Of a stretch of DNA of 64,000 nt, positions 4,604 through 60,553 are shown piece after piece. A program made the translations under genes and the position numbers. Below the pieces are notes generated by a model. It saw only the letters and a list, made by a program, of their open reading frames with translations, did not search any database and was not told where the DNA came from. This stretch comes from Opitutaceae bacterium (GTDB taxonomy: Bacteria > Verrucomicrobiota > Verrucomicrobiia > Opitutales > Opitutaceae), in assembly GCA_037969015.1 (NCBI GenBank), contig JBBKWO010000057.1, forward strand, positions 17,837 to 81,836, given 5' to 3'. How positions within the stretch are numbered: the stretch's first letter is position 1; each line of letters starts with the position of its first letter.

Positions 4604-5554
4604 TCAACCCGTCGCTTCACGCAACGCCTTCCGCTGAAACTCGCCCGGCGGTATTCCCACCAAACGACGGAACGCCTTGCTGAAATGAAAGCGGTCCGAG
4701 AATCCCGATAACTCCGCAGCGTCCTCAATCGTCACCTTGGGATTAGCCAGCAGGCGCTTGGCCCGGTTAATACGAGCCTGCAGCAGATAAAGGCTGAGAT
4801 CCGTGCCCATGGACTGCTTGAACTTCCGCCCGAGAAAATCCGGATGGCAGTTCAGATGGTCCGCGAGATCCTTCACAATAAACGGCTCCTGCAAATGCGC
4901 CGCGATGTAAGCGATGGCCTCACGCACAACATACGGGACGTCCTCTGGATCGTTGTAAGGGTAACGTAGCGCACGCACCTTGTAGAGCTCCGGACGCACC
5001 CCGCTCGCATCAAAGAAAAACCGCGCCAACCGCGCCACCGTGCGCAGGGTCTGCTGGTGCATCGGAATACTTTCCGCATCGATCTTCGGCACCTGCTTCA
5101 GCGCCTGCAAATACGGCTCCGGATCATAGTTCATTCGTGCGCAATAGCGCCGGATGCGCAGCGCCGAACGCTTCTCCTGGCCACGCACGACGACCGAACC
5201 AAAATAAAATACGCCGAGCACGCGATTGCTGATGATCAGCGGTTCGGCGATGTCGAAAAGCCCCAGATGGCACAGGCCGTTGAGCCCCGCCTTGCGGCGA
5301 ACAACCAGTCGGTTGACCGCCACTTTGTTACGCGTGCAATCGCGGCTCCAATCCGGCTTCTTCGCCAGCTGGCAATACTCGCACATGTGGAACTGATGCC
5401 CCGCATCCAGCCGCATCGCCGGCACGTCCGTATGCGCCCCATTCAACATCCCCGTCAGATCATCGAAGCTCATGTGCATGCCGCTTCCCGCCTCAAACGA
5501 CTCCATTAACTCCTGAAGCATTGGACGCTCGCTACTGATCGGGGAACTTTCCAT
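4604..5554 (-). CDS. PocR-like sensor domain fused to an AraC-type HTH regulator
   Basis: The likely start is MESSPISS (rc ATG 5552-5554). The N-terminal half has a PocR-like Cys/His pattern: HMCEYCQ...DC...GLCHLGLFDIAEPLI...LGVFYFG. The C-terminus is an AraC HTH: ...LLQARINRAKRLL...AELSGFSDRFHFSKAFRR. Confidence 0.8.
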   Translation of the reverse strand: MESSPISSERPMLQELMESFEAGSGMHMSFDDLTGMLNGAHTDVPAMRLDAGHQFHMCEYCQLAKKPDWSRDCTRNKVAVNRLVVRRKAGLNGLCHLGLFDIAEPLIISNRVLGVFYFGSVVVRGQEKRSALRIRRYCARMNYDPEPYLQALKQVPKIDAESIPMHQQTLRTVARLARFFFDASGVRPELYKVRALRYPYNDPEDVPYVVREAIAYIAAHLQEPFIVKDLADHLNCHPDFLGRKFKQSMGTDLSLYLLQARINRAKRLLANPKVTIEDAAELSGFSDRFHFSKAFRRLVGIPPGEFQRKALREATG

Positions 5555-5710
5555 GTCGGGCAAAGGCAACACCCTCCAGACAATCGCCGCCCATCCACGG
5601 CACAAGCGACAAATCCGCGATGCCTTCCACTGAGTCGGCAGACGACACATCGCAGGTCGGCAAACAGGTCACCCCCCTGAACGGGGTTACGGTAGACTGA
5701 CGCCCTTCCG

Positions 5711-7087
5711 ATGAAGACCCATTCTCTTAACACCCGCCAAATCCCAATCGACGACAGTTGGGATATTATTGTTGCCGGAGGTGGTCCCGCCGGCTGCACC
5801 GCCGCCATCGCCGCCGCCCGTGAAGGCGCCCGCACGCTGCTCGTCGAATCCACCGGATCGCTCGGAGGCTCCGGAACCAGCGCACTCGTGCCCGCTTGGT
5901 GTCCGTTTTCCGACAAGGAAAAAATCATTTACCGCGGCCTCGCCGAGACCGTCTTTAACGCCGCCAAAGAAGGTATCGCCCACGTAAAATCCGGCGATCT
6001 CGACTGGGTTCCGATCAACGCCGAAAAGCTTAAACGCGTTTACGACGATCTCCTGACGACAGCCGGCGCCAGCGTCCTGTTTCAAACCACACTGTGCACC
6101 GTTGAAAAATCGGCCGACGATACCGTGTCCACCCTCATCGTGGCCAACAAGGCCGGCCTCTCCGCACTGCGCGCCAAGGTCTATGTCGACTGCACCGGTG
6201 ACGCCGATCTGTCCGCGTGGGCAGGCGCGGAGTTTCAACAAGGCGACGAAAACGGCGAGACCCAAGCGACGACTCACTGCTTCACCCTGGCGAACATCGA
6301 CTCCTACGCCTACGCACACTCCCCCGATCTCGGGTGGTGGGATCCGCTCAGTCCCATTCACAACATCGTCGCATCCGGCCGGTATCCGGAAATCCCCGAC
6401 AAGCACCTTTGCGCGAATCTGGTCGGACCGGGAACGGTCGGCTTTAACGCAGGCCATATCTGGGACGTTGACAACACCGACCCCAGCTCCATCTCCCGAG
6501 CCCTGATGCAGGGCCGTCGCATGGCCGAAGCATACCGCAAAGGCCTCGCGGAGTTTGCCCCGCAAACGTTCGCCAACGCCTTTGTCGTCAGCACCGGAGC
6601 CGTTCTCGGTGTGCGTGAATCCCGACGGGTTACCGGCGACTACGTGCTCACACTCGAAGACTTCCTCGAACGCCGCAGCTTCCCCGATGAGATCTGCCGC
6701 AACAGCTACTTCATCGACCTGCATCAGACCAAAGAGGAACACGCCAAACACTTGACCGAGGTCGATACCGCCACGCGCTTCAAGCAGTATGGCAAAGGCG
6801 AATCACACGGTATTCCCTACCGTTGCCTGACCCCCAAAGGCCTCAAGAACGTGCTCATCGCCGGACGCTCCGTTTCCTGCGAGCGCATTGTGCAAGGCAG
6901 CGTGCGCGTCATGCCCGTTTGTCTCGCCATGGGAGAAGCCGCCGGAGTGGCCGCCGCACTCGCCGCCGCCACTCCCGGACACGATGTGCATGCCGTAGAC
7001 ACCGAGATTCTGCGCATACGATTACAAGCTCACGGAGCCCATCTGCCCCCTGTGAAAGCCGCGGTCAACGAACCGGTGTTTTCTTAA
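5711..7087 (+). CDS. FAD-dependent oxidoreductase (FAD_oxidored / PF12831-like)
   Basis: The N-terminal Rossmann motif is WDIIVAGGGPAGCTAAIAAAREGARTLLVE, and the ORF is 458 aa. Confidence 0.8.
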   Translation: MKTHSLNTRQIPIDDSWDIIVAGGGPAGCTAAIAAAREGARTLLVESTGSLGGSGTSALVPAWCPFSDKEKIIYRGLAETVFNAAKEGIAHVKSGDLDWVPINAEKLKRVYDDLLTTAGASVLFQTTLCTVEKSADDTVSTLIVANKAGLSALRAKVYVDCTGDADLSAWAGAEFQQGDENGETQATTHCFTLANIDSYAYAHSPDLGWWDPLSPIHNIVASGRYPEIPDKHLCANLVGPGTVGFNAGHIWDVDNTDPSSISRALMQGRRMAEAYRKGLAEFAPQTFANAFVVSTGAVLGVRESRRVTGDYVLTLEDFLERRSFPDEICRNSYFIDLHQTKEEHAKHLTEVDTATRFKQYGKGESHGIPYRCLTPKGLKNVLIAGRSVSCERIVQGSVRVMPVCLAMGEAAGVAAALAAATPGHDVHAVDTEILRIRLQAHGAHLPPVKAAVNEPVFS

Positions 7088-13742: not shown

Positions 13743-13816
13743 TGCCTGATGGTGTAATGGCAGCACAGGTGACTTTGACTCACCTAGTCATGGTTCGAAT
13801 CCATGTCGGGCAGCCA
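13743..13816 (+). tRNA. tRNA-Gln (anticodon UUG), CCA encoded
   Basis: I folded a 74-nt cloverleaf by hand. The acceptor is TGCCTGA/TCGGGCA, the D stem GTGT/GCAC, and the anticodon stem GGTGA/TCACC with loop CTTTGAC. The T arm is CATGG-TTCGAAT-CCATG, the discriminator is G, and CCA follows. Confidence 0.9.
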
Positions 13817-13846: not shown

Positions 13847-13944
13847 GCTGCCCAGAATGGAGGAGAACCTTGGTTCGACGAAGCGGAGCGGAGATGGGAC
13901 GCCCACAGGGCGGTCGCGTAGCGATTGGGTCAGCAGACCCAACC

Positions 13945-14008
13945 AATCCATGTCGGGCAGCCAATTTAACCGACTCGAAAGAGTCGGCTTTTTGCTGCCC
14001 AAAATGGA
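13945..14008 (+). repeat. Direct repeat of the last 19 nt of tRNA-Gln plus its downstream hairpin (second copy; the first copy is 13798-13862)
   Basis: AATCCATGTCGGGCAGCCA is identical in both copies. The next ~45 nt (TTTARCCGACTCGAAAGAGTCGGCTTYTTGCTGCCCARAATGGA) differ at only 4 positions. The copy offset is 147 bp. Confidence 0.85.
13970..13993 (+). terminator. Terminator hairpin in the second repeat copy
   Basis: The hairpin is CCGACTC-GAAA-GAGTCGG followed by CTTTTT. Confidence 0.6.
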
Positions 14009-32735: not shown

Positions 32736-32954
32736 ATGAAAAACATTACCCTCAGTGCCGACGAACGCATGATCGAACGCGCACGTGAACAAGCCCTGTC
32801 TCACAAAACCACGCTCAACCAATTATTCCGCGACTGGTTGGCCAGTCTGGTGGCCGAACAGGAACGCACGGCCAAAATCGACGCACTCTTTGAGCGTTTC
32901 GACCATGTAGATGCCGGCGGAAAATTCAGCCGAGAGGACATGAATGCCCGCTGA
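32736..32954 (+). CDS. vapB: Ribbon-helix-helix antitoxin (VapB-like)
   Basis: The protein is 72 aa and begins with MKNITLSADERMIERAREQA, consistent with an RHH beta-strand and helix. It overlaps the PIN gene by 11 nt. Confidence 0.7.
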   Translation: MKNITLSADERMIERAREQALSHKTTLNQLFRDWLASLVAEQERTAKIDALFERFDHVDAGGKFSREDMNAR

Positions 32955-33369
32955 ACTGTTTCTAGACACCAACATCCTAGTTTACGCCTTCGACCAAACC
33001 GCGCCGGCCAAGCGTAACCGAGCCCGGGAAATCATTCGCGGAGACGACGACTGGTCGGTCAGTTGGCAAGTGGTTCAGGAGTTTTGCTCGGTCGCGCTGC
33101 ATCGCTTCGCCGCACCGATCAGCGCGACCGATCTGCGCGACTATCTGGATGTGGTGCTATTGCCACGCTGTCGGATCATGCCCTCCGCTGATCTCTATCG
33201 GCATGCCTTGGACGTGCAGGCCCAAACCGGCTACCGCTACTACGATAGCCTAGTCGTCACCGCGGCACTGGCGTCAGGCGCGCACCGACTCCTCTCCGAA
33301 GACCTCCAACATGGCCGCCAAATCGGCAACTTGCGGATCGAGAATCCGTTTTTAGCGAAAACCAGTTGA
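32944..33369 (+). CDS. vapC: PIN-domain toxin (VapC)
   Basis: FLDTNILVYAFD carries the first acidic residue, later acidic positions include YYDSLVV, and the length is 141 aa. Confidence 0.85.
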   Translation: MPAELFLDTNILVYAFDQTAPAKRNRAREIIRGDDDWSVSWQVVQEFCSVALHRFAAPISATDLRDYLDVVLLPRCRIMPSADLYRHALDVQAQTGYRYYDSLVVTAALASGAHRLLSEDLQHGRQIGNLRIENPFLAKTS

Positions 33370-33381
33370 TCGACGCTCCCC

Positions 33382-36300
33382 TCAGCCCTCGATCACCACG
33401 AGCGTTTCGCCGGCGTTGACCGGACGGCCCTCGGCGCAGCGCACTTCACGGACCTTACCGGGACGACTAGCGACCACGGAGACTTCCATCTTCATGGACT
33501 CGAGGATCACCAACACGTCGCCTTCAGCCACGGTCGCACCAGGCGTAACCAAGACCTTCCAGACGTTGCCGGGGATGTGCGCCGGCACCGCCAGGCAACC
33601 TTCGGGCAATGCGCCTTCATCGACCAATGCCGCCGACTCTTCGTTGGCCGAGAAGTTGAGCTGACCACTTTCCACCCAGCGCTGACGCTCGGCCTCAAAC
33701 GCGGCCTGTTGGTGCGTCTTGAATGCGGTAATCGTATCGGCGTTGTCGGTGAGGAATTTCTGGTAGTCCCGTAGCTTGAAGGTCGTCTGCTCGATCTTGA
33801 GCTTCACCTTACCCTGCGGGAAATCCTCGCGGAACTTGGTGAGCTCTGCGTTCGACACCGGATAAAATCGGATCTGGTCAAAGAAGCGCAGCAGCCACGG
33901 TTTGCCGTCCACGAAATCGGCCGTTTGTTTATGGCGGTTCCACATCTGACAGGTGCGTCCGATAAACTGATATCCGCCCGGACCCTCCATGCCATAGACG
34001 CACAGATATGCACCGCCGATGCCGACGGCGTTCTCGGGAGTCCAGGTGCGGGCCGGATTATATTTTGTAGTGACCAACCGGTGACGTGGATCAACCGGAG
34101 TCGCCACCGGCGCCCCGAGATAAACATCACCCAGCGCGAGCACCAGGTAGCTCGCGTCGAAACAAATACGGTAAACCTCTTCGAGGTTCGGCAGGTCGTT
34201 GATGCGGCGGATGAACTCCAAATTGCTCGGGCACCAAGGCGCGTCCTTGCGCACGATCTGCATGTATTTGCGAATCGCCAGCAACGTGGACTCGTCTTCC
34301 CACGACAGCGGTAGGTGCACGATGCGCGACGGCACTTCAATGTCGTCGATCGCCGGCAGCTCAGATTCGGCTCGCAGCAAAATCTCCAGCAGTCGCTCCA
34401 TCGGGAGCAGACGGTAATCGAAATGCACCTGCAACGAACGAATGCCCGGCGTCAGGTCAATGAGGCCCGGCACCTTGTGACGTTCCAGCCAAGTTTTAAG
34501 CGCGTGCACCCGCATACGCATGACGATGTCGAGTTGCAGTGGGCCGTATTCGACCAGCAGGTTGGCGTCGCCCTGACGGCGATACACCACTTTCGGCGCC
34601 ATCGGTCGCTCCGCAAGTTCATGCAGCACAGCAGGCTCAGATAAAGTATAACCCATTGGGTTAAACTTTATCAGGGAAGGTTTGGGCACGCGCTTTAGGT
34701 TTTCGATCTCGGACTCTTGGGCGAAAGCGAGTTCGCGGGCCACCTGTGCAGTGAGCGGCAGAAAGCGGACTTTGTCGCCGGGCTTGAGCTGACCCATCTT
34801 CCAGAGCTCGGACTGCACTATCGTGAACGGGCAGACGAAGCCACCGCAGCTGGGGCCGTCGGGGCCGAGGATGATCGGCATGTCGCCGGTGAAATCGACG
34901 GCGCCGATGGCGTAGGCGTTGTCGTGGATATTACTCGGATGCAGGCCAGCCTCGCCACCATCGCGGCGGGCCCACTCGGGCTTAGGACCAATCAGGCGCA
35001 CACCAGTGCGGGCCGAGTTGTAGTGAACCTCGTAAGCCGTGCTAAGTAGCGTGCCGATGTCCGCCTCGGTGAAGAAGTCGGGCGCACCGTGCGGTCCGTA
35101 GAGCACACCGATGGTCCACTCGCGGGTGAGTGGTGGCTGGATGCTAGCGGGAGCTCGCAGCAAGGGAGCATCATCGGTGACACCAGCCGGCGTGGAAGTA
35201 TTGACGCGTAACACGTCGCCGACGCGCAGCGCTCGGCCAGCGTGGCCGCCAAAGAGGCCGAGGGTGAAAGTGGACTTGCTGCCGAGGTAGTCCGGCACGT
35301 CGAGTCCATGCCGAATGGCGAGGTAACCACGCAGACCGGGGCCGTCGACCGCGCCGAGGCGAAGCGTCTGACCGGCCTTCACGCGAAAGGCGCGGAAGCC
35401 GGCAACGGGTTTGCCGTTGAGCGTGGCACCGAGGTGCGCGCCGGTCAGCGCGACGACCGCCGGCGTGTTAAAGCGCAGGGTCGGACCGTTGACGGTGATC
35501 TCCAAGCCGGCCGCCGTGTCGGGATTGCCGACGAGGCGGTTGGCGAGGCGGAAGGACAGGTTATCCATCGGGCCGGAAGGCGGCACGCCGACATCCCAGT
35601 AACCAATACGCGCGGGATAGTCCTGCACGGTGGTCTGGGTGCCGCCCTCAAGGACTTCGATGGTGGCAGGCACGTAGGGCAGACTGGCGAGATATTTTGT
35701 CGTGACCGGACCACTACGGAACCCCTCGCTGGCGATAATTTGCCGCAGATAACCGAGGTTATTCTCGATGCCGTAAACGCGGGTGTCGGCCAACGCGGCG
35801 TCCATACGCGCGAGGGCATCGGCGCGGTCGCTACCTTTGACAATGATCTTGGCGATCATCGGATCGTAGAACGCGGAGACTTCGCTGCCGGTCTCGACCC
35901 AGGTCTCGACGCGCGCGGTCTTGGCGAAGTGAACATTGGTCAGCAAGCCAGCGGCGGGCTGGAAGTTTTTGCCCGGGTCCTCGGCATAGAGCCGCACCTG
36001 GATGGAATGCCCCGTCGGGACGGGCTGTAACCCAATGTTCGTATTACGAACATTGGGATCAGCCTGTATGCCGATGGGGGCGTCTAGAATGTTCGTATTA
36101 CGAACAAAGTCACAGAGGTTGAGTTCGCCGGCGGCGGCGCGGATCATCCATTCGACGAGGTCCACGCCGGTGACTTCCTCGGTGACACCGTGTTCAACTT
36201 GGAGGCGAGTGTTGACCTCAAGGAAATAGTAATGGCCCGCGGCACTGTCGTAGACGAACTCGACGGTGCCGGCATTGGTGTAGCCAGCCGCAGTGCCGAG

Positions 36301-37080
36301 ACGGGCGGCACAGGCGAGGAGCTCGGTGCGCTGTTCGGCGGTCAGACCTGGCGCGGGGGTTTCTTCAACGACCTTTTGATTACGGCGTTGCACCGAGCAG
36401 TCGCGTTCGCCGAGTGCGACGACATGGCCGTGGGAGTCGCCGAAGATCTGGACTTCGATGTGGCGGGCGTGTTCGACGAATTTTTCGAGGAAGACGCCTC
36501 CGTCCTTAAAATTGTTTTGCGCGAGGCGGACGACCGAGGTGAAGGCGTTGGCGAGCTCGGCCGGTTTGCGAATGAGCTGCATGCCGATACCGCCGCCGCC
36601 GCCGGTGCTTTTGAGCATGACGGGGTAGCCGATGCGGGCGGCCTCGGATCGCGCGGTGGCGAGGTCGGGCAGAAGTTCGGTGCCGGGCAGGAGCGGGACG
36701 CCGTTGGCCTTGGCGAGGGCGCGGGCGGAGTGCTTGGGACCGAGCAGGCGCATCTGTTCAGCGCGGGGACCAATGAAGGCAATGCCGGCTGCGGCGCAGG
36801 CTTCAACAAAGGCGGTGTTCTCCGAGAGGAATCCGTAACCGGGGTGGATGGCTTGGGCGCCGGTTTGTTGGGCGGCGGCGAGGATCTTGTCCGCATCAAG
36901 GTAGGATTGCGCGGCAGGCGACGGACCGATGTGGACGGCTTCGTCAGCGAGGGCAACGTGCAGGCTGTGACGGTCGGCGTCGGAGTAAACGGCGACACTA
37001 CCGATGCCCATGCGTTTCAGCGTGCGAATGATCCGGCAGGCAATGGCACCACGGTTGGCGATGAGGACTTTGCTGAACAC
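33382..37080 (-). CDS. Urea carboxylase family biotin enzyme (urea/guanidine carboxylase: BC, KipA/KipI-like carboxyltransferase and BCCP domains)
   Basis: With a GTG start at rc 37078-37080 the N-terminus reads (M)FSKVLIANRGAIACRIIRT, as in biotin carboxylases. The BCCP motif ESMKMEV is at the C-terminus. The ORF-track ATG at 37131 lies inside a hairpin repeat and adds a non-homologous MPFVTFVVKNNPTLPFP extension. Confidence 0.9.
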   Translation of the reverse strand: MFSKVLIANRGAIACRIIRTLKRMGIGSVAVYSDADRHSLHVALADEAVHIGPSPAAQSYLDADKILAAAQQTGAQAIHPGYGFLSENTAFVEACAAAGIAFIGPRAEQMRLLGPKHSARALAKANGVPLLPGTELLPDLATARSEAARIGYPVMLKSTGGGGGIGMQLIRKPAELANAFTSVVRLAQNNFKDGGVFLEKFVEHARHIEVQIFGDSHGHVVALGERDCSVQRRNQKVVEETPAPGLTAEQRTELLACAARLGTAAGYTNAGTVEFVYDSAAGHYYFLEVNTRLQVEHGVTEEVTGVDLVEWMIRAAAGELNLCDFVRNTNILDAPIGIQADPNVRNTNIGLQPVPTGHSIQVRLYAEDPGKNFQPAAGLLTNVHFAKTARVETWVETGSEVSAFYDPMIAKIIVKGSDRADALARMDAALADTRVYGIENNLGYLRQIIASEGFRSGPVTTKYLASLPYVPATIEVLEGGTQTTVQDYPARIGYWDVGVPPSGPMDNLSFRLANRLVGNPDTAAGLEITVNGPTLRFNTPAVVALTGAHLGATLNGKPVAGFRAFRVKAGQTLRLGAVDGPGLRGYLAIRHGLDVPDYLGSKSTFTLGLFGGHAGRALRVGDVLRVNTSTPAGVTDDAPLLRAPASIQPPLTREWTIGVLYGPHGAPDFFTEADIGTLLSTAYEVHYNSARTGVRLIGPKPEWARRDGGEAGLHPSNIHDNAYAIGAVDFTGDMPIILGPDGPSCGGFVCPFTIVQSELWKMGQLKPGDKVRFLPLTAQVARELAFAQESEIENLKRVPKPSLIKFNPMGYTLSEPAVLHELAERPMAPKVVYRRQGDANLLVEYGPLQLDIVMRMRVHALKTWLERHKVPGLIDLTPGIRSLQVHFDYRLLPMERLLEILLRAESELPAIDDIEVPSRIVHLPLSWEDESTLLAIRKYMQIVRKDAPWCPSNLEFIRRINDLPNLEEVYRICFDASYLVLALGDVYLGAPVATPVDPRHRLVTTKYNPARTWTPENAVGIGGAYLCVYGMEGPGGYQFIGRTCQMWNRHKQTADFVDGKPWLLRFFDQIRFYPVSNAELTKFREDFPQGKVKLKIEQTTFKLRDYQKFLTDNADTITAFKTHQQAAFEAERQRWVESGQLNFSANEESAALVDEGALPEGCLAVPAHIPGNVWKVLVTPGATVAEGDVLVILESMKMEVSVVASRPGKVREVRCAEGRPVNAGETLVVIEG
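36034..36105. repeat. In-frame 72-nt insertion-like segment inside the carboxylase ORF, bounded by two identical AT-rich palindromes
   Basis: AATGTTCGTATTACGAACA occurs at 36034-36052 and 36088-36106. The left copy extends to a perfect 13-1-13 palindrome, CCCAATGTTCGTA-T-TACGAACATTGGG (36031-36057). The segment encodes VRNTNI-LDAPIGIQADPN-VRNTNI. Confidence 0.9.
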
Positions 37081-37103
37081 GGGAAAAGGGAGAGTTGGAT
37101 TAT

Positions 37104-37192
37104 TTTTAACCACGAAGGTCACGAAGGGCACGAAGCCCGGACAGCAGAGCCGTTAATCTCTTCGTGAATCTTCGTGACCTTCGTGGTTAAAA
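37104..37192. repeat. Long hairpin element (family B, copy 1) between the DUF1989 gene stop and the carboxylase start
   Basis: A perfect 23-bp stem is formed by TTTTAACCACGAAGGTCACGAAG (37104-37126) and CTTCGTGACCTTCGTGGTTAAAA (37170-37192). The arms consist of a 9-nt periodic CACGAAG repeated three times. Confidence 0.85.
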
Positions 37193-37194
37193 TT

Positions 37195-59748: not shown

Positions 59749-59843
59749 GAAGTTGTAGCCACGGCCGTCCCCGGCCGTGTTCCGGAAGCGACGTCAAACG
59801 TAGCCTCACGCCAAATACGCCCTCGGGGACGGGGCGGCTACAT
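59749..59843. repeat. REP-like GC-rich palindromic element (family A, copy 2)
   Basis: The sequence is GAAGTTGTAGCCACGGCCGTCCCCGGCCGTGT...GGGGACGGGGCGGCTACATC. It fills the gap between the convergent ABC-F and methyltransferase stops. Confidence 0.85.
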
Positions 59844-60553
59844 CACTTTCGCAGCACCAGCATCGTGCCGCTGCCGACGAAGAACCGGTGCTCAACCGAC
59901 CGCACCTCCACTTCAATGCCGAGCGCAGCCAACTCCACGCGCAGCCGCTGATGTTCGTAATACGAACATCCATCAGAACCACAAACAGGGTAGATGCGCA
60001 CCTCGCCGCGACTCACGCGCACCAGCTCGCGGCAGGCCGCCAAGTGAAAATTAAAGTCGAGCTGCTTGGCGTAGATGAACAGCAGGTGCGCACACAGCAC
60101 CGTATCGAAAGCGCCGTCCTCAAACGGCAGGTCCGGCAACGCACCGCCGACATAACGGCCATGCACAAAGTGCTGCTCGTAGTCTTCGACAAATACGCGT
60201 GCCGATTCGCGGCGGGAGCCGACCGCCTCGTCGATCGAGCCAAACGTGCCGCGTTGAAACAACTCCGGTTTGCGTCGCATTTCCGCGGCCACCCGGCGGT
60301 GGTCGATCAACGCATGCGTGGCCAACGCATCCGCCGTCAACCCGTAGAGCGGATCAACCGCCGTCGCGTCGACTCCACGCGCATTAGCCCCGGCGGTAAA
60401 CGCCGACGGACCGGCGGCGACATCTAGCACCCGTCGCCCTCGCAGCGCGTCGGCATCGAGTGCGAACATGGAACAGTATTCGTTAAATTCGCGCCCAAAG
60501 AACGCGATGGATGACAGGGAAAAGGAGGGAAGAACGGAAGAAACAGCGTGCAT
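59843..60553 (-). CDS. Class I SAM-dependent methyltransferase
   Basis: Motif I is RVLDVAAGPSAF and the post-I acidic residue lies in VDATAVDP. The protein is 236 aa. Confidence 0.7.
   Translation of the reverse strand: MHAVSSVLPSFSLSSIAFFGREFNEYCSMFALDADALRGRRVLDVAAGPSAFTAGANARGVDATAVDPLYGLTADALATHALIDHRRVAAEMRRKPELFQRGTFGSIDEAVGSRRESARVFVEDYEQHFVHGRYVGGALPDLPFEDGAFDTVLCAHLLFIYAKQLDFNFHLAACRELVRVSRGEVRIYPVCGSDGCSYYEHQRLRVELAALGIEVEVRSVEHRFFVGSGTMLVLRK
59950..59970. repeat. Third copy of the AT-rich palindrome, inside the methyltransferase ORF
   Basis: GATGTTCGTA-A-TACGAACATC is a perfect 10-1-10 palindrome. On the coding strand it is read as ...DGCSYYEHQ..., a different frame from the VRNTNI reading in the carboxylase. 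Confidence 0.9.

Follow-up and report, generated by a model that had tools for sequence, protein, structure and literature searches.

Palindromic repeats that lie in frame within conserved protein genes, adding surface segments without destroying the protein, have a precedent in the Rickettsia palindromic elements (RPEs), which are about 100-150 nt long, have conserved interiors specific to each family, and are known only from Rickettsia. The subject here is a repeat of this general kind from another phylum. The window analysed, 64 kb of the genome of an Opitutaceae bacterium (Verrucomicrobiota; contig JBBKWO010000057.1), carries a urea carboxylase gene whose biotin-carboxylase domain is interrupted by a block made of two copies of a short palindrome and a spacer. 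With moderate confidence, we take this block to be an in-frame doublet of an interspersed palindromic repeat specific to the Opitutales and similar to the repetitive extragenic palindromic sequences (REPs) of other bacteria. An earlier note on this DNA had likened the block to RPEs, and aptly, as both put palindromic repeats in frame into protein genes; unlike RPEs, the conserved unit is only 17-25 nt long, the doublet spacers are unique, and most copies are intergenic.

A closer relative was already on record. Di Nocera et al. (2013; PMC3733652) described REPs tagged with GTAG or CGTC across prokaryotes, and found Opitutus terrae to be highly enriched in GTAG REPs and to have the most intragenic REPs of all. 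About 70 of its open reading frames (ORFs) are decorated, REP singles adding 7-8 residues and dimers about 15-50 (supplementary table of PMC3733652); the decorated proteins include UvrA, DnaE2, DNA ligase and helicases. The view of the earlier note that nothing equivalent was known in the lineage therefore has to be given up: O. terrae, of the type genus of the family, had been published for just such in-frame singles and dimers.

The resemblance goes some way. Like the O. terrae GTAG-17/18/19 REPs (PMC3733652), the palindrome of the window is a short, interspersed unit; it occurs as singles, as dimers with variable spacers (20-100 nt in the O. terrae REPs) and in clusters; it lies mainly outside genes, near 3' ends and between unidirectional or convergent ORFs; its intragenic singles and dimers are in frame (with 54, 69 or 78 nt added); and it decorates DnaE-type polymerases and helicases, all within the same bacterial family. 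The differences are as clear: the core of the Opitutales palindrome is AT-rich and perfect, whereas REPs are G+C-rich and imperfect; its sequence is identical across an order, whereas REPs are specific to a species or genus; and the gene that it brackets encodes a protein like the Xre helix-turn-helix (HTH) regulators, not a REP-associated tyrosine transposase (RAYT) of the HUH type. The peptide VRNTN or VRITN, which it encodes, is not among the published O. terrae intragenic REP peptides (PMC3733652), nor was the core sequence found in the literature searched. In-frame palindromic dimers in Opitutaceae genes are thus already known; this palindrome family and its HTH partner appear to be undescribed.

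The doublet in the urea carboxylase gene

The host gene is a 1249-codon ORF on the minus strand (33382-37131), the translation of which has biotin carboxylase, allophanate-hydrolase-type CT and BCCP domains. Its best homologues bear the names urea carboxylase or urea amidolyase family, and it matches 3va7 and 5i8i in the PDB; translation probably begins close to 37080, the point at which homologues start with MF.KVLIANRG. The gene has two DUF1989 genes upstream of it, an arrangement shared with the orthologous loci L119 and L120. The ORF has a G+C content of 0.66, 0.45 and 0.74 at the three codon positions, and within it the 19-mer AATGTTCGTATTACGAACA, with only 6 G+C in 19, occurs twice in direct repeat, at 36034-36052 and 36088-36106, 54 nt apart. 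These positions and the spacing had been claimed before and are recovered by a direct-repeat search; the translation across the block, ...LNLCDF-VRNTNILDAPIGIQADPNVRNTNI-GLQPVPTGH..., likewise agrees with the earlier reading, and a peptide by which the block could be recognised is VRNTNILDAPIGIQADPNVRNTNIGLQ.

The two copies are not alike in extent. Copy 1 (36031-36057; 17-nt core 36036-36052) is, as had been said of it, a perfect 13-1-13 palindrome of 27 nt, CCCAATGTTCGTA-T-TACGAACATTGGG, with arms at 36031-36043 and 36045-36057; as coding-strand RNA it would form a 12-bp stem (-19.2 kcal/mol, z = -6.7). Copy 2, AATGTTCGTATTACGAACA (36088-36106; 17-nt core 36090-36106), has a distal arm that adjoins, or is partly supplied by, native codons (GAC TTT GT/T), and its RNA stem would be 7 bp only (-6.6 kcal/mol). 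Between the cores lies a G+C-rich spacer of 37 nt (36053-36089) of unique sequence, TTGGGATCAGCCTGTATGCCGATGGGGGCGTCTAGAA: a metagenome scan returned three 20-21-nt chance matches only, on unrelated contigs without the palindrome, and BLAST found no similarity to the spacers of other doublets or to any locus compared.

That the block is an insertion follows from its relatives. It is absent from all 46 aligned carboxylase homologues, the two closest (84% and 83% identity by BLASTP) included, and the nucleotide alignment with the genes of P0001 and P0002 (loci L119 and L120) opens a single clean 78-nt gap, GAC TTT GT[T CGT ... TTA CA]G CCC GTC; the palindrome motif is not found in these two orthologous loci. 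The insertion thus occupies 36026-36103 on the minus strand, with boundaries ambiguous by 1-2 nt, and comprises 78 nt or 26 codons, encoding (V)RNTNILDAPIGIQADPNVRNTNIGLQ, rather than the 72 nt and 24 codons first proposed; arithmetically, 78 is 24 + 54. The proposal of a lineage-specific, frame-preserving insertion in a biotin-carboxylase loop has otherwise stood up well. A local tandem duplication, by which the block might have been explained away, is rejected, since copy 2 is not followed by a repeat of the spacer and the palindrome is dispersed over the window and over Opitutales genomes. As no palindrome pre-exists in the relatives, the carboxylase event is a true insertion in the lineage of the window.

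The ends of the insert bear on how it arose. At one end the palindrome is short of its first 2-3 bases, which native codons supply; at the other the insert extends 11 nt beyond the second palindrome; and comparison of the filled site with the empty sites of L119 and L120 reveals no target-site duplication. A truncated palindrome, extra nucleotides and no duplicated target fit microhomology-mediated copying or template switching better than cut-and-paste transposition. Spread of the repeat may likewise involve copying, template switching or recombination, and not a transposase.

The protein seems to have borne the insertion without harm. In alignment with the urea carboxylase of K. lactis (3va7), the insert falls between aligned 3va7 blocks 233-348 and 360-468, which are separated by 36 residues in the window protein and by 11 in 3va7. 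In an AlphaFold2 model of residues 1-534 (mean predicted local distance difference test score, pLDDT, 84; 354 residues at 90 or above), residues 347-367 fall below 50 and have no secondary structure; on one side of this stretch is the helix that closes the ATP-grasp part, on the other the strand with which the C-terminal part begins. The invariant columns of the family alignment are all intact. A clean insertion in a loop modelled as disordered, with the invariant residues in place, points to a loop on the surface or in a linker, probably one that the enzyme can bear, and the carboxylase copy looks like a tolerated passenger without a catalytic role.

The window holds a third copy, ATGTTCGTAATACGAACAT, at 59951-59969 (core 59952-59968), inside an S-adenosylmethionine-dependent (SAM) methyltransferase gene on the minus strand (59843-60553). 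With at most two mismatches, the 17-nt core TGTTCGTAWTACGAACA is thus found three times in the 64 kb against 0.00 expected from 100 dinucleotide-preserving shuffles; allowing three mismatches adds no further copy to the window, in which the palindrome is also the most repeated non-trivial 13-mer.

A palindrome family of the Opitutales

A search for the motif among relatives, which the earlier note had recommended, reveals a dispersed and recurrent family: an exact-core scan of 185,579 species-representative genomes returned at least 118 genome stretches. The palindrome has the consensus CCAATGTTCGTAWTACGAACATTGG and the essential core GTTCGTAWTACGAAC; 135 aligned instances lengthen the consensus to CCAA-TGTTCGTAWTACGAACA-TTGG, 25 nt. 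Conservation is close to absolute: 898 kb of high-GC loci contain 143 exact copies, and 7, 1, 3 and 4 copies with one, two, three and four mismatches, the last being the chance level; that is, more than 90% of copies are letter-perfect. In a symmetric variant, AGTTCG...CGAACT, the outermost pair has changed on both sides together. The covariation is real only at the second flanking pair (A:T 79 and G:C 19, against about 4.5 G:C expected from column frequencies), and in the 135 instances there is no excess complementarity past the fourth. Long, variable palindromic flanks, entertained as hairpin covariation, are accordingly rejected: the excess ends at flank position 4 and is mostly a longer consensus.

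The family belongs to one lineage. Among the stretches listed, at least 118 in number, 103 are labelled Verrucomicrobiota, under the names Opitutaceae, Opitutales, Opitutia, Lacunisphaera, Rariglobus and Opitutus, as unclassified bins, or as 'Akkermansia' bins of 64-69% G+C; the complete chromosome OY970130.1 has at least six palindrome loci between 1.0 and 4.9 Mb. The other 15 of the 118 are single sites in unrelated phyla, some of them like ordinary operators upstream of genes. Three of these, in Comamonadaceae, Pseudacidovorax and Rhodospirillales (L037 5769, L053 1657 and L114 1904), are exact matches 13-51 nt upstream of gene starts, each of which runs directly into a second, half-similar site (e.g. 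...CGAACAaaTGTTCGATTTCCGAACA); they are probably operators of an unrelated regulator with the same half-sites. A phage origin of the palindrome was considered and dismissed, with just 8 single matches in 2.9 million viral contigs.

The metagenome-assembled genomes (MAGs) labelled 'uncultured Akkermansia sp.' deserve a comment of their own. Those numbered L023, L027, L028, L032, L034, L040, L047, L052, L056, L066, L070, L079, L082, L086, L087, L093, L095, L102 and L113 combine 64-69% G+C with many Opitutales palindromes, and L032 has a close orthologue in the Opitutaceae bin L050. The label is probably wrong, and the MAGs probably belong to the Opitutales instead.

The half-sites raise the question of SOS control. 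LexA boxes of Verrucomicrobia stand upstream of recA, lexA and mutagenesis-cassette genes. Their motif, described by Erill and colleagues in 2016, is reportedly TGTTC-N4-GAACA, the half-sites of which, TGTTC and GAACA, are identical to those of the palindrome. The spacing here is 7, however, not 4, and the 7 central bases are invariant; moreover, copies lie mostly 3' of genes or within them, and the genes beside them are ordinary metabolic ones, among which repair genes are not enriched. That the sites are LexA boxes is barely credible.

Placement was assessed with a simple, crude codon-usage gene caller trained on the loci, which called at least 82% of the sequence coding. On these calls only 33 of 136 copies are intragenic, the other 103 (76%) being intergenic. 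The gene feature nearest to the intergenic copies is a stop codon, at a median distance of 81 nt; convergent, tandem and divergent regions hold 30, 48 and 13 copies against a background of 94, 264 and 90 (chi-square about 8.3, 2 df), so that convergent regions have an excess of copies and divergent ones a deficit.

A repeat at the 3' ends of genes might act in RNA, as a hairpin that stabilises the 3' end, terminates transcription or binds a protein, and the carboxylase copy might in this way affect translation or decay. Most copies do lie within about 100 nt downstream of stops, with the enrichment between convergent genes just noted, and the whole carboxylase insert, as coding-strand RNA, folds at -40 kcal/mol (z = -6.3). 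But all 17 positions are conserved without compensatory change, the covariation being confined to the second flanking pair; and the central W (A or T), the sole asymmetric base, shows no bias with respect to the direction of the upstream gene (31 T versus 30 A downstream of stops). Nor does the block contain an intrinsic terminator, a promoter consensus or a T-run; nothing in Rfam 15 overlaps it, the sole weak match in 35500-36600 being Xoo5 (E = 0.5), elsewhere. The candidate partner protein, finally, is modelled with a DNA-binding type of fold. Of the alternatives that the earlier note had offered, an RNA-level structure thus finds no support, and we think it quite improbable.

Doublets, arrays and the question of a transposase

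Copies occur as singles, doublets and small arrays. The 28 neighbouring pairs are 37-197 nt apart, with spacings clustered at 53-54 and 63-69 nt, modes near 54 and 65-67 nt, and no helical periodicity; the 54-nt spacing of the window is found again in L002, L018 and L021. Every doublet spacer differs, and by BLAST none matches another spacer or locus except in embedded palindromes; comparison of the spacers likewise gives no conserved internal sequence from a parent insertion sequence (IS) common to the copies. The central W is inverted between partners in 19 doublets and direct in 9, which is not significant (two-sided binomial about 0.09).

The 54- and 66-67-nt periods had suggested addition of repeat-spacer units in the manner of CRISPR, a candidate that was rejected, as spacers vary in length, the W is often flipped, and copies also stand alone and within genes. 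Most copies are singles or doublets, spacings run from 37 to 197 nt, and no Cas protein is among the 25 families listed for the neighbours. The dRS3 repeats and the NIMEs of Neisseria consist of 20-bp inverted repeats present in hundreds of copies, which form arrays with variable segments of 50-150 bp; the dRS3 units are targets of a site-specific recombinase or phage. The Opitutales palindrome is dispersed and arrayed in a like manner but differs from them in sequence and lineage, and no recombinase association is seen for it.

Doublets could also be conventional mobile elements, either miniature transposons with inverted repeats (MITEs) or REPs mobilised by a RAYT: each doublet would be one element with two terminal inverted repeats, served by a transposase encoded elsewhere. 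The tendency of the W to flip within doublets is what terminal inverted repeats would give, short of significance as it is; distribution and dimer organisation match those of REPs (PMC3733652); and palindrome copies delimit an IS of L024 that carries a DDE_5 transposase. Several observations speak against it. The carboxylase junctions have no target-site duplication and one truncated palindrome; with a different spacer in every doublet there is no conserved element interior; and many copies overlay native codons without any change of length. The GTAG or CGTC tag is missing, and among 99 proteins encoded within 700 nt of copies there is no Y1_Tnp/HUH or other recurring transposase family, although whole genomes were not searched for RAYT. 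Transposition by such a route is unlikely.

The IS in question (L024 1350-5100; OY970130.1, at about 1.016 Mb) is 1814 bp long and present in two tandem copies, each bounded by CGATGTTCGTATTACGAACATCG; beside it are 37-nt tandem units with one palindrome each. It may target the palindrome, or duplicate it on insertion.

Copies within genes are not all insertions. The core carries a stop in only one of six frames (TGT TCG TAA, where W is A on that strand) and is open in the other five; of the 22 copies at which the coding potential runs on in frame to either side, 19 read V-R-[N/I]-T-N, which is hydrophilic, and 3 read [ML]-F-V-[IL]-R-T. The hosts are unrelated proteins, and the copies sit in linkers or at domain boundaries: between two GT4 glycosyltransferase domains, just after a cobW domain, between two GcpE blocks, after the HhH domain of a DnaE-type polymerase, inside a SNF2 domain, and, in the urea carboxylase, between the ATP-grasp and Biotin_carb_C parts. 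The methyltransferase copy of the window uses a third frame, C-S-Y-Y-E-H, and overlays native codons with no change in length, aligning without a gap to 59 representatives (GSDG-CSY-YEH-QRL versus GADG-EPY-PEL-ERL).

An RsmB-like rRNA methyltransferase offers the fullest comparison. Here the palindrome-encoded R-L-x-NVRITNI fills the same ungapped positions as the native R-L-x-NITIVREP; 37 of 120 orthologues have the exact VR[NI]TN peptide, and the 83 others include graded intermediates (NVRITDIP, NIRITSDP and NVRVTTNP); NITIVREP, NVRITDIP and NVRITNIP form one such graded series. The site is patchy: L091 has a perfect palindrome, whereas its closest relatives (84% and 79% amino-acid identity; 85% nucleotide) have the native NITIVREP. 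In L091 about 15 of 24 nt of the patch differ, against about 15% divergence elsewhere in the gene, and it has a few flanking bases in common with palindrome-bearing lineages.

Other events do change the length. In L021 (also P0460), the RsmB gene has 54 nt added beside the shared palindrome, consisting of a 33-nt spacer and a second palindrome with the W flipped; the GT4 gene of L032 has, beside the shared palindrome, 69 nt not present in its 88%-identical orthologue of L050. Both could instead be deletions between two palindromes in the relatives; the carboxylase event, as noted, differs in that no palindrome was there before. With the 78 nt of the carboxylase, these would be recurrent additions of a palindrome together with a unique spacer (+54 RsmB-like, +69 GT4, +78 carboxylase), of which selection inside genes would keep only those that are multiples of three, free of stops and placed in linkers.

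The same RsmB loop harbours another repeat. In L144 (2904-3000), P0427, P0455, P0470, P0473, P0477, P0478, P0495 and P0509, a different in-frame insert, PVIARSP..DD.AIQLDRHGAL.APRDD, stands just after the (decayed) palindrome position. Its coding DNA forms an inverted repeat, GTCATTGCGAGGAG...CCTCGCGACGAC; a further family of palindromic repeats is using this site.

Overlay of native codons in tolerated frames recalls spread by biased recombination, as with a DNA uptake sequence: fragments with the palindrome would be favoured in uptake or recombination and would overwrite native alleles, so that copies build up wherever the peptide is tolerated. The patchy RsmB site, with its divergent patch in L091, would suit such a drive. 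Known DNA uptake sequences, however, occur about once per kb and are not palindromes, while the present family has roughly one locus in tens of kb (the 64-kb window holds 3 copies, and the flanks of three 20-kb loci of the HTH gene considered below hold none). Uptake also accounts neither for doublet insertions with unique spacers nor for the bracketing of that gene. We consider it very unlikely.

The bracketed gene of a predicted helix-turn-helix protein

A small gene of about 120-135 codons, found in 6 of the 118 motif-selected loci listed, has the palindrome on both sides in all 11 genomes examined. Besides the six motif-selected loci, these include five members picked by protein similarity alone, with no motif selection (P0131, P0209, P0235, P0237 and P0220), and in these bracketing holds for all five. 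In all 11, the upstream palindrome is exact and stops 0-6 nt short of the inferred start codon; the called ORF overlaps it or runs through it in L121 and L125. Downstream, a copy with at most two mismatches follows 1-100 nt after the stop, and 1-17 nt after it in 9 of 10 extragenic cases: of the six motif-selected loci, four have the second copy 6-17 nt past the stop and L100 has it at about 100 nt, while that of L031 falls within the codons of the C-terminus; the copy of L004 is the symmetric variant AGTTCG...CGAACT. The flanks of three 20-kb loci have no further copy, and the orientation of the central W around the gene shows no significant bias. Although the HTH proteins are only about 50-60% identical to the query P0121, their upstream 17-mers are identical, which is unbiased evidence of purifying selection on the sites.

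The gene looks like a settled inhabitant of these genomes. The 264 members of the family in a collection of 5.8 billion proteins are all 'hypothetical' and lack a Pfam domain, and wherever a source is named it is Opitutaceae, Opitutae, Opitutales or Verrucomicrobiota; each protein cluster occurs on few contigs only, and the gene is apparently single-copy. A convergent gene for a 185-residue membrane protein follows it in three genomes, a conserved neighbourhood that marks it as a resident chromosomal gene.

The protein is predicted to have a long N-terminal helix (7-37), then an invariant basic segment, R-R-G-A-T-L-R-P...T-P-L-W-N (the RRGATLRP arm), and, in residues 54-120, four helices including ALLARELGVHRARIGEYF. 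In the AlphaFold2 model (pLDDT 70), helices 54-67, 72-80, 84-91 and 100-120 score 80-87. The top 50 Foldseek matches are nearly all HTH domains of the Xre/Cro type (HigA, GraA, C.Esp1396I, SinR, HipB, CapH and lambda cI), with a best E of 0.3; YdaS and HigA profiles match weakly, at E = 0.01-0.04, below their curated cut-offs. There are no HUH or tyrosine motifs.

Two observations concern the gene itself. In L121 (10001), L125 (10001) and P0214, and in the ORF lists of L013, L031 and L069, callers and the longest-ORF rule read through the upstream palindrome and so lengthen the 5' end of the gene, as in MRACAYGNVRNTNIG-MAAY...; a palindrome 0-6 nt before the conserved start takes up the space of a Shine-Dalgarno sequence, so that a leaderless mRNA is possible. 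The most array-like arrangement is on the Tara Oceans contig L141 (1660-2375), where four palindromes follow the gene at a 66-67-nt period and two precede it, 101 nt apart; here the repeat is unchanged in a marine lineage of lower G+C content (55%).

The bracketing suggests that the palindrome is probably the DNA recognition site of the HTH protein. That is, a dedicated protein of about 120 residues, apparently single-copy and with a long N-terminal helix, a basic arm and an Xre/Cro-like HTH, would recognise palindrome DNA, a step with moderate support; and its gene, bracketed by the palindrome, would be laid out like a REPtron, in which a RAYT gene is flanked by its own REPs, but with no HUH transposase. 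One gene is bracketed on both sides by an interspersed palindrome in each case. Unlike the protein of a REPtron, this one has neither HUH or tyrosine motifs nor a Pfam domain, and is modelled as an HTH; an ability to cut or join DNA cannot be assumed for it.

If an HTH protein binds the palindrome, the two copies in the carboxylase gene might be working operators, as the earlier note had also suggested: the HTH protein or another dimeric regulator would bind sites 54 bp (about five helical turns) apart and control carboxylase transcription by roadblock or looping, and the insertion would have been kept for that. This alternative gains something from the new gene, since the palindrome is perfectly conserved, is associated with a protein of DNA-binding type, and overlaps the start region of the HTH gene as autoregulatory operators do; the recurrence of the 54-nt spacing in the window, L002, L018 and L021 is in keeping with it. 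Against it, the distance between partners varies from 37 to about 200 nt and follows no helical period; intragenic copies are in unrelated housekeeping genes, at linkers; orthologous carboxylase genes, including two that are about 84% identical, lack the site; and copies are depleted in genes and in divergent, that is promoter, regions. For the carboxylase pair, operator function is improbable.

A broader role in the chromosome is a tentative possibility. The sites of ParB, MatP and Noc (parS, matS and NBS, respectively) are near-perfect palindromes of 13-16 bp, present in tens of sites within and between genes, each served by one dedicated small protein. The Opitutales palindrome resembles them in being a near-perfect palindromic site found in both settings; those sites differ in that they do not form doublets with inserted spacers and are less depleted in genes, and the protein families are unrelated. 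Palindromes and HTH protein, the latter with a coiled-coil-like helix beside its basic arm and HTH, might together make up an undescribed chromosomal system of the Opitutales: tens to at least 100 letter-perfect sites of 17-25 bp, kept by selection at the 3' ends of genes, in convergent intergenic regions and on both sides of the HTH gene, would serve as transcription boundaries, roadblocks or chromosome-organising sites, and would have been multiplied by a route other than transposition, which occasionally carries them, with captured spacers, into coding loops.

The preferred reading, of a REP-like repeat with an HTH partner, has several points to answer. A purely selfish repeat would not usually stay near-perfect throughout an order, which hints at some function for the host. 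Neither end of the palindrome has a GTAG or CGTC tag in the 135 instances, the flanks being CCAA...TTGG; with no tag and no RAYT seen, it falls outside the REP superfamilies that have been described. Several intragenic copies are overlays, not insertions, and the ungapped overlays, graded intermediates and patchiness argue that point substitution or short-patch recombination also makes copies or wears them away. The match of the modelled HTH fold is statistically non-significant (best E = 0.3, pLDDT 70), and a search of PDB sequences with the family profile found nothing; we infer binding of the palindrome by this protein from sequence and layout. With no spacer donor found and no target-site duplication, the mechanism of insertion, too, is something that we infer throughout.

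Other features of the window and of the orthologous loci may be recorded. A PIN-domain gene (32944-33369) follows the carboxylase gene directly on its downstream side, in opposite orientation, and its product may be the toxin in a toxin-antitoxin pair. Locus L119, that of the closest relative, has a PDDEXK_3 gene (5493-5900) between the second DUF1989 gene and the carboxylase gene, where the window has none (37132-37194); L121 also contains a PDDEXK_3 gene. Downstream of a tRNA-Gln gene (13743-13816), at a distance of 147 nt (about 13930-13990), its 3' end and the terminator hairpin next to it recur in direct orientation, CCATGTCGGGCAGCCA...CCGACTCGAAAGAGTCGGCTT; this resembles the trace of an att site left by an integrated element.

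From in-frame palindromic repeats one sees how far the loops of an enzyme can accommodate foreign sequence, here a predicted disordered loop of 26 residues in the well-studied biotin-carboxylase fold. The setting is a phylum with little molecular genetics. In practice the palindrome is a lineage marker, which flags 'Akkermansia' MAGs that are probably mislabelled; gene callers, for their part, read through it and extend the 5' ends of ORFs. If it is true that the HTH protein binds the palindrome, both the function of REP-like repeats and their spread without a transposase would become testable.

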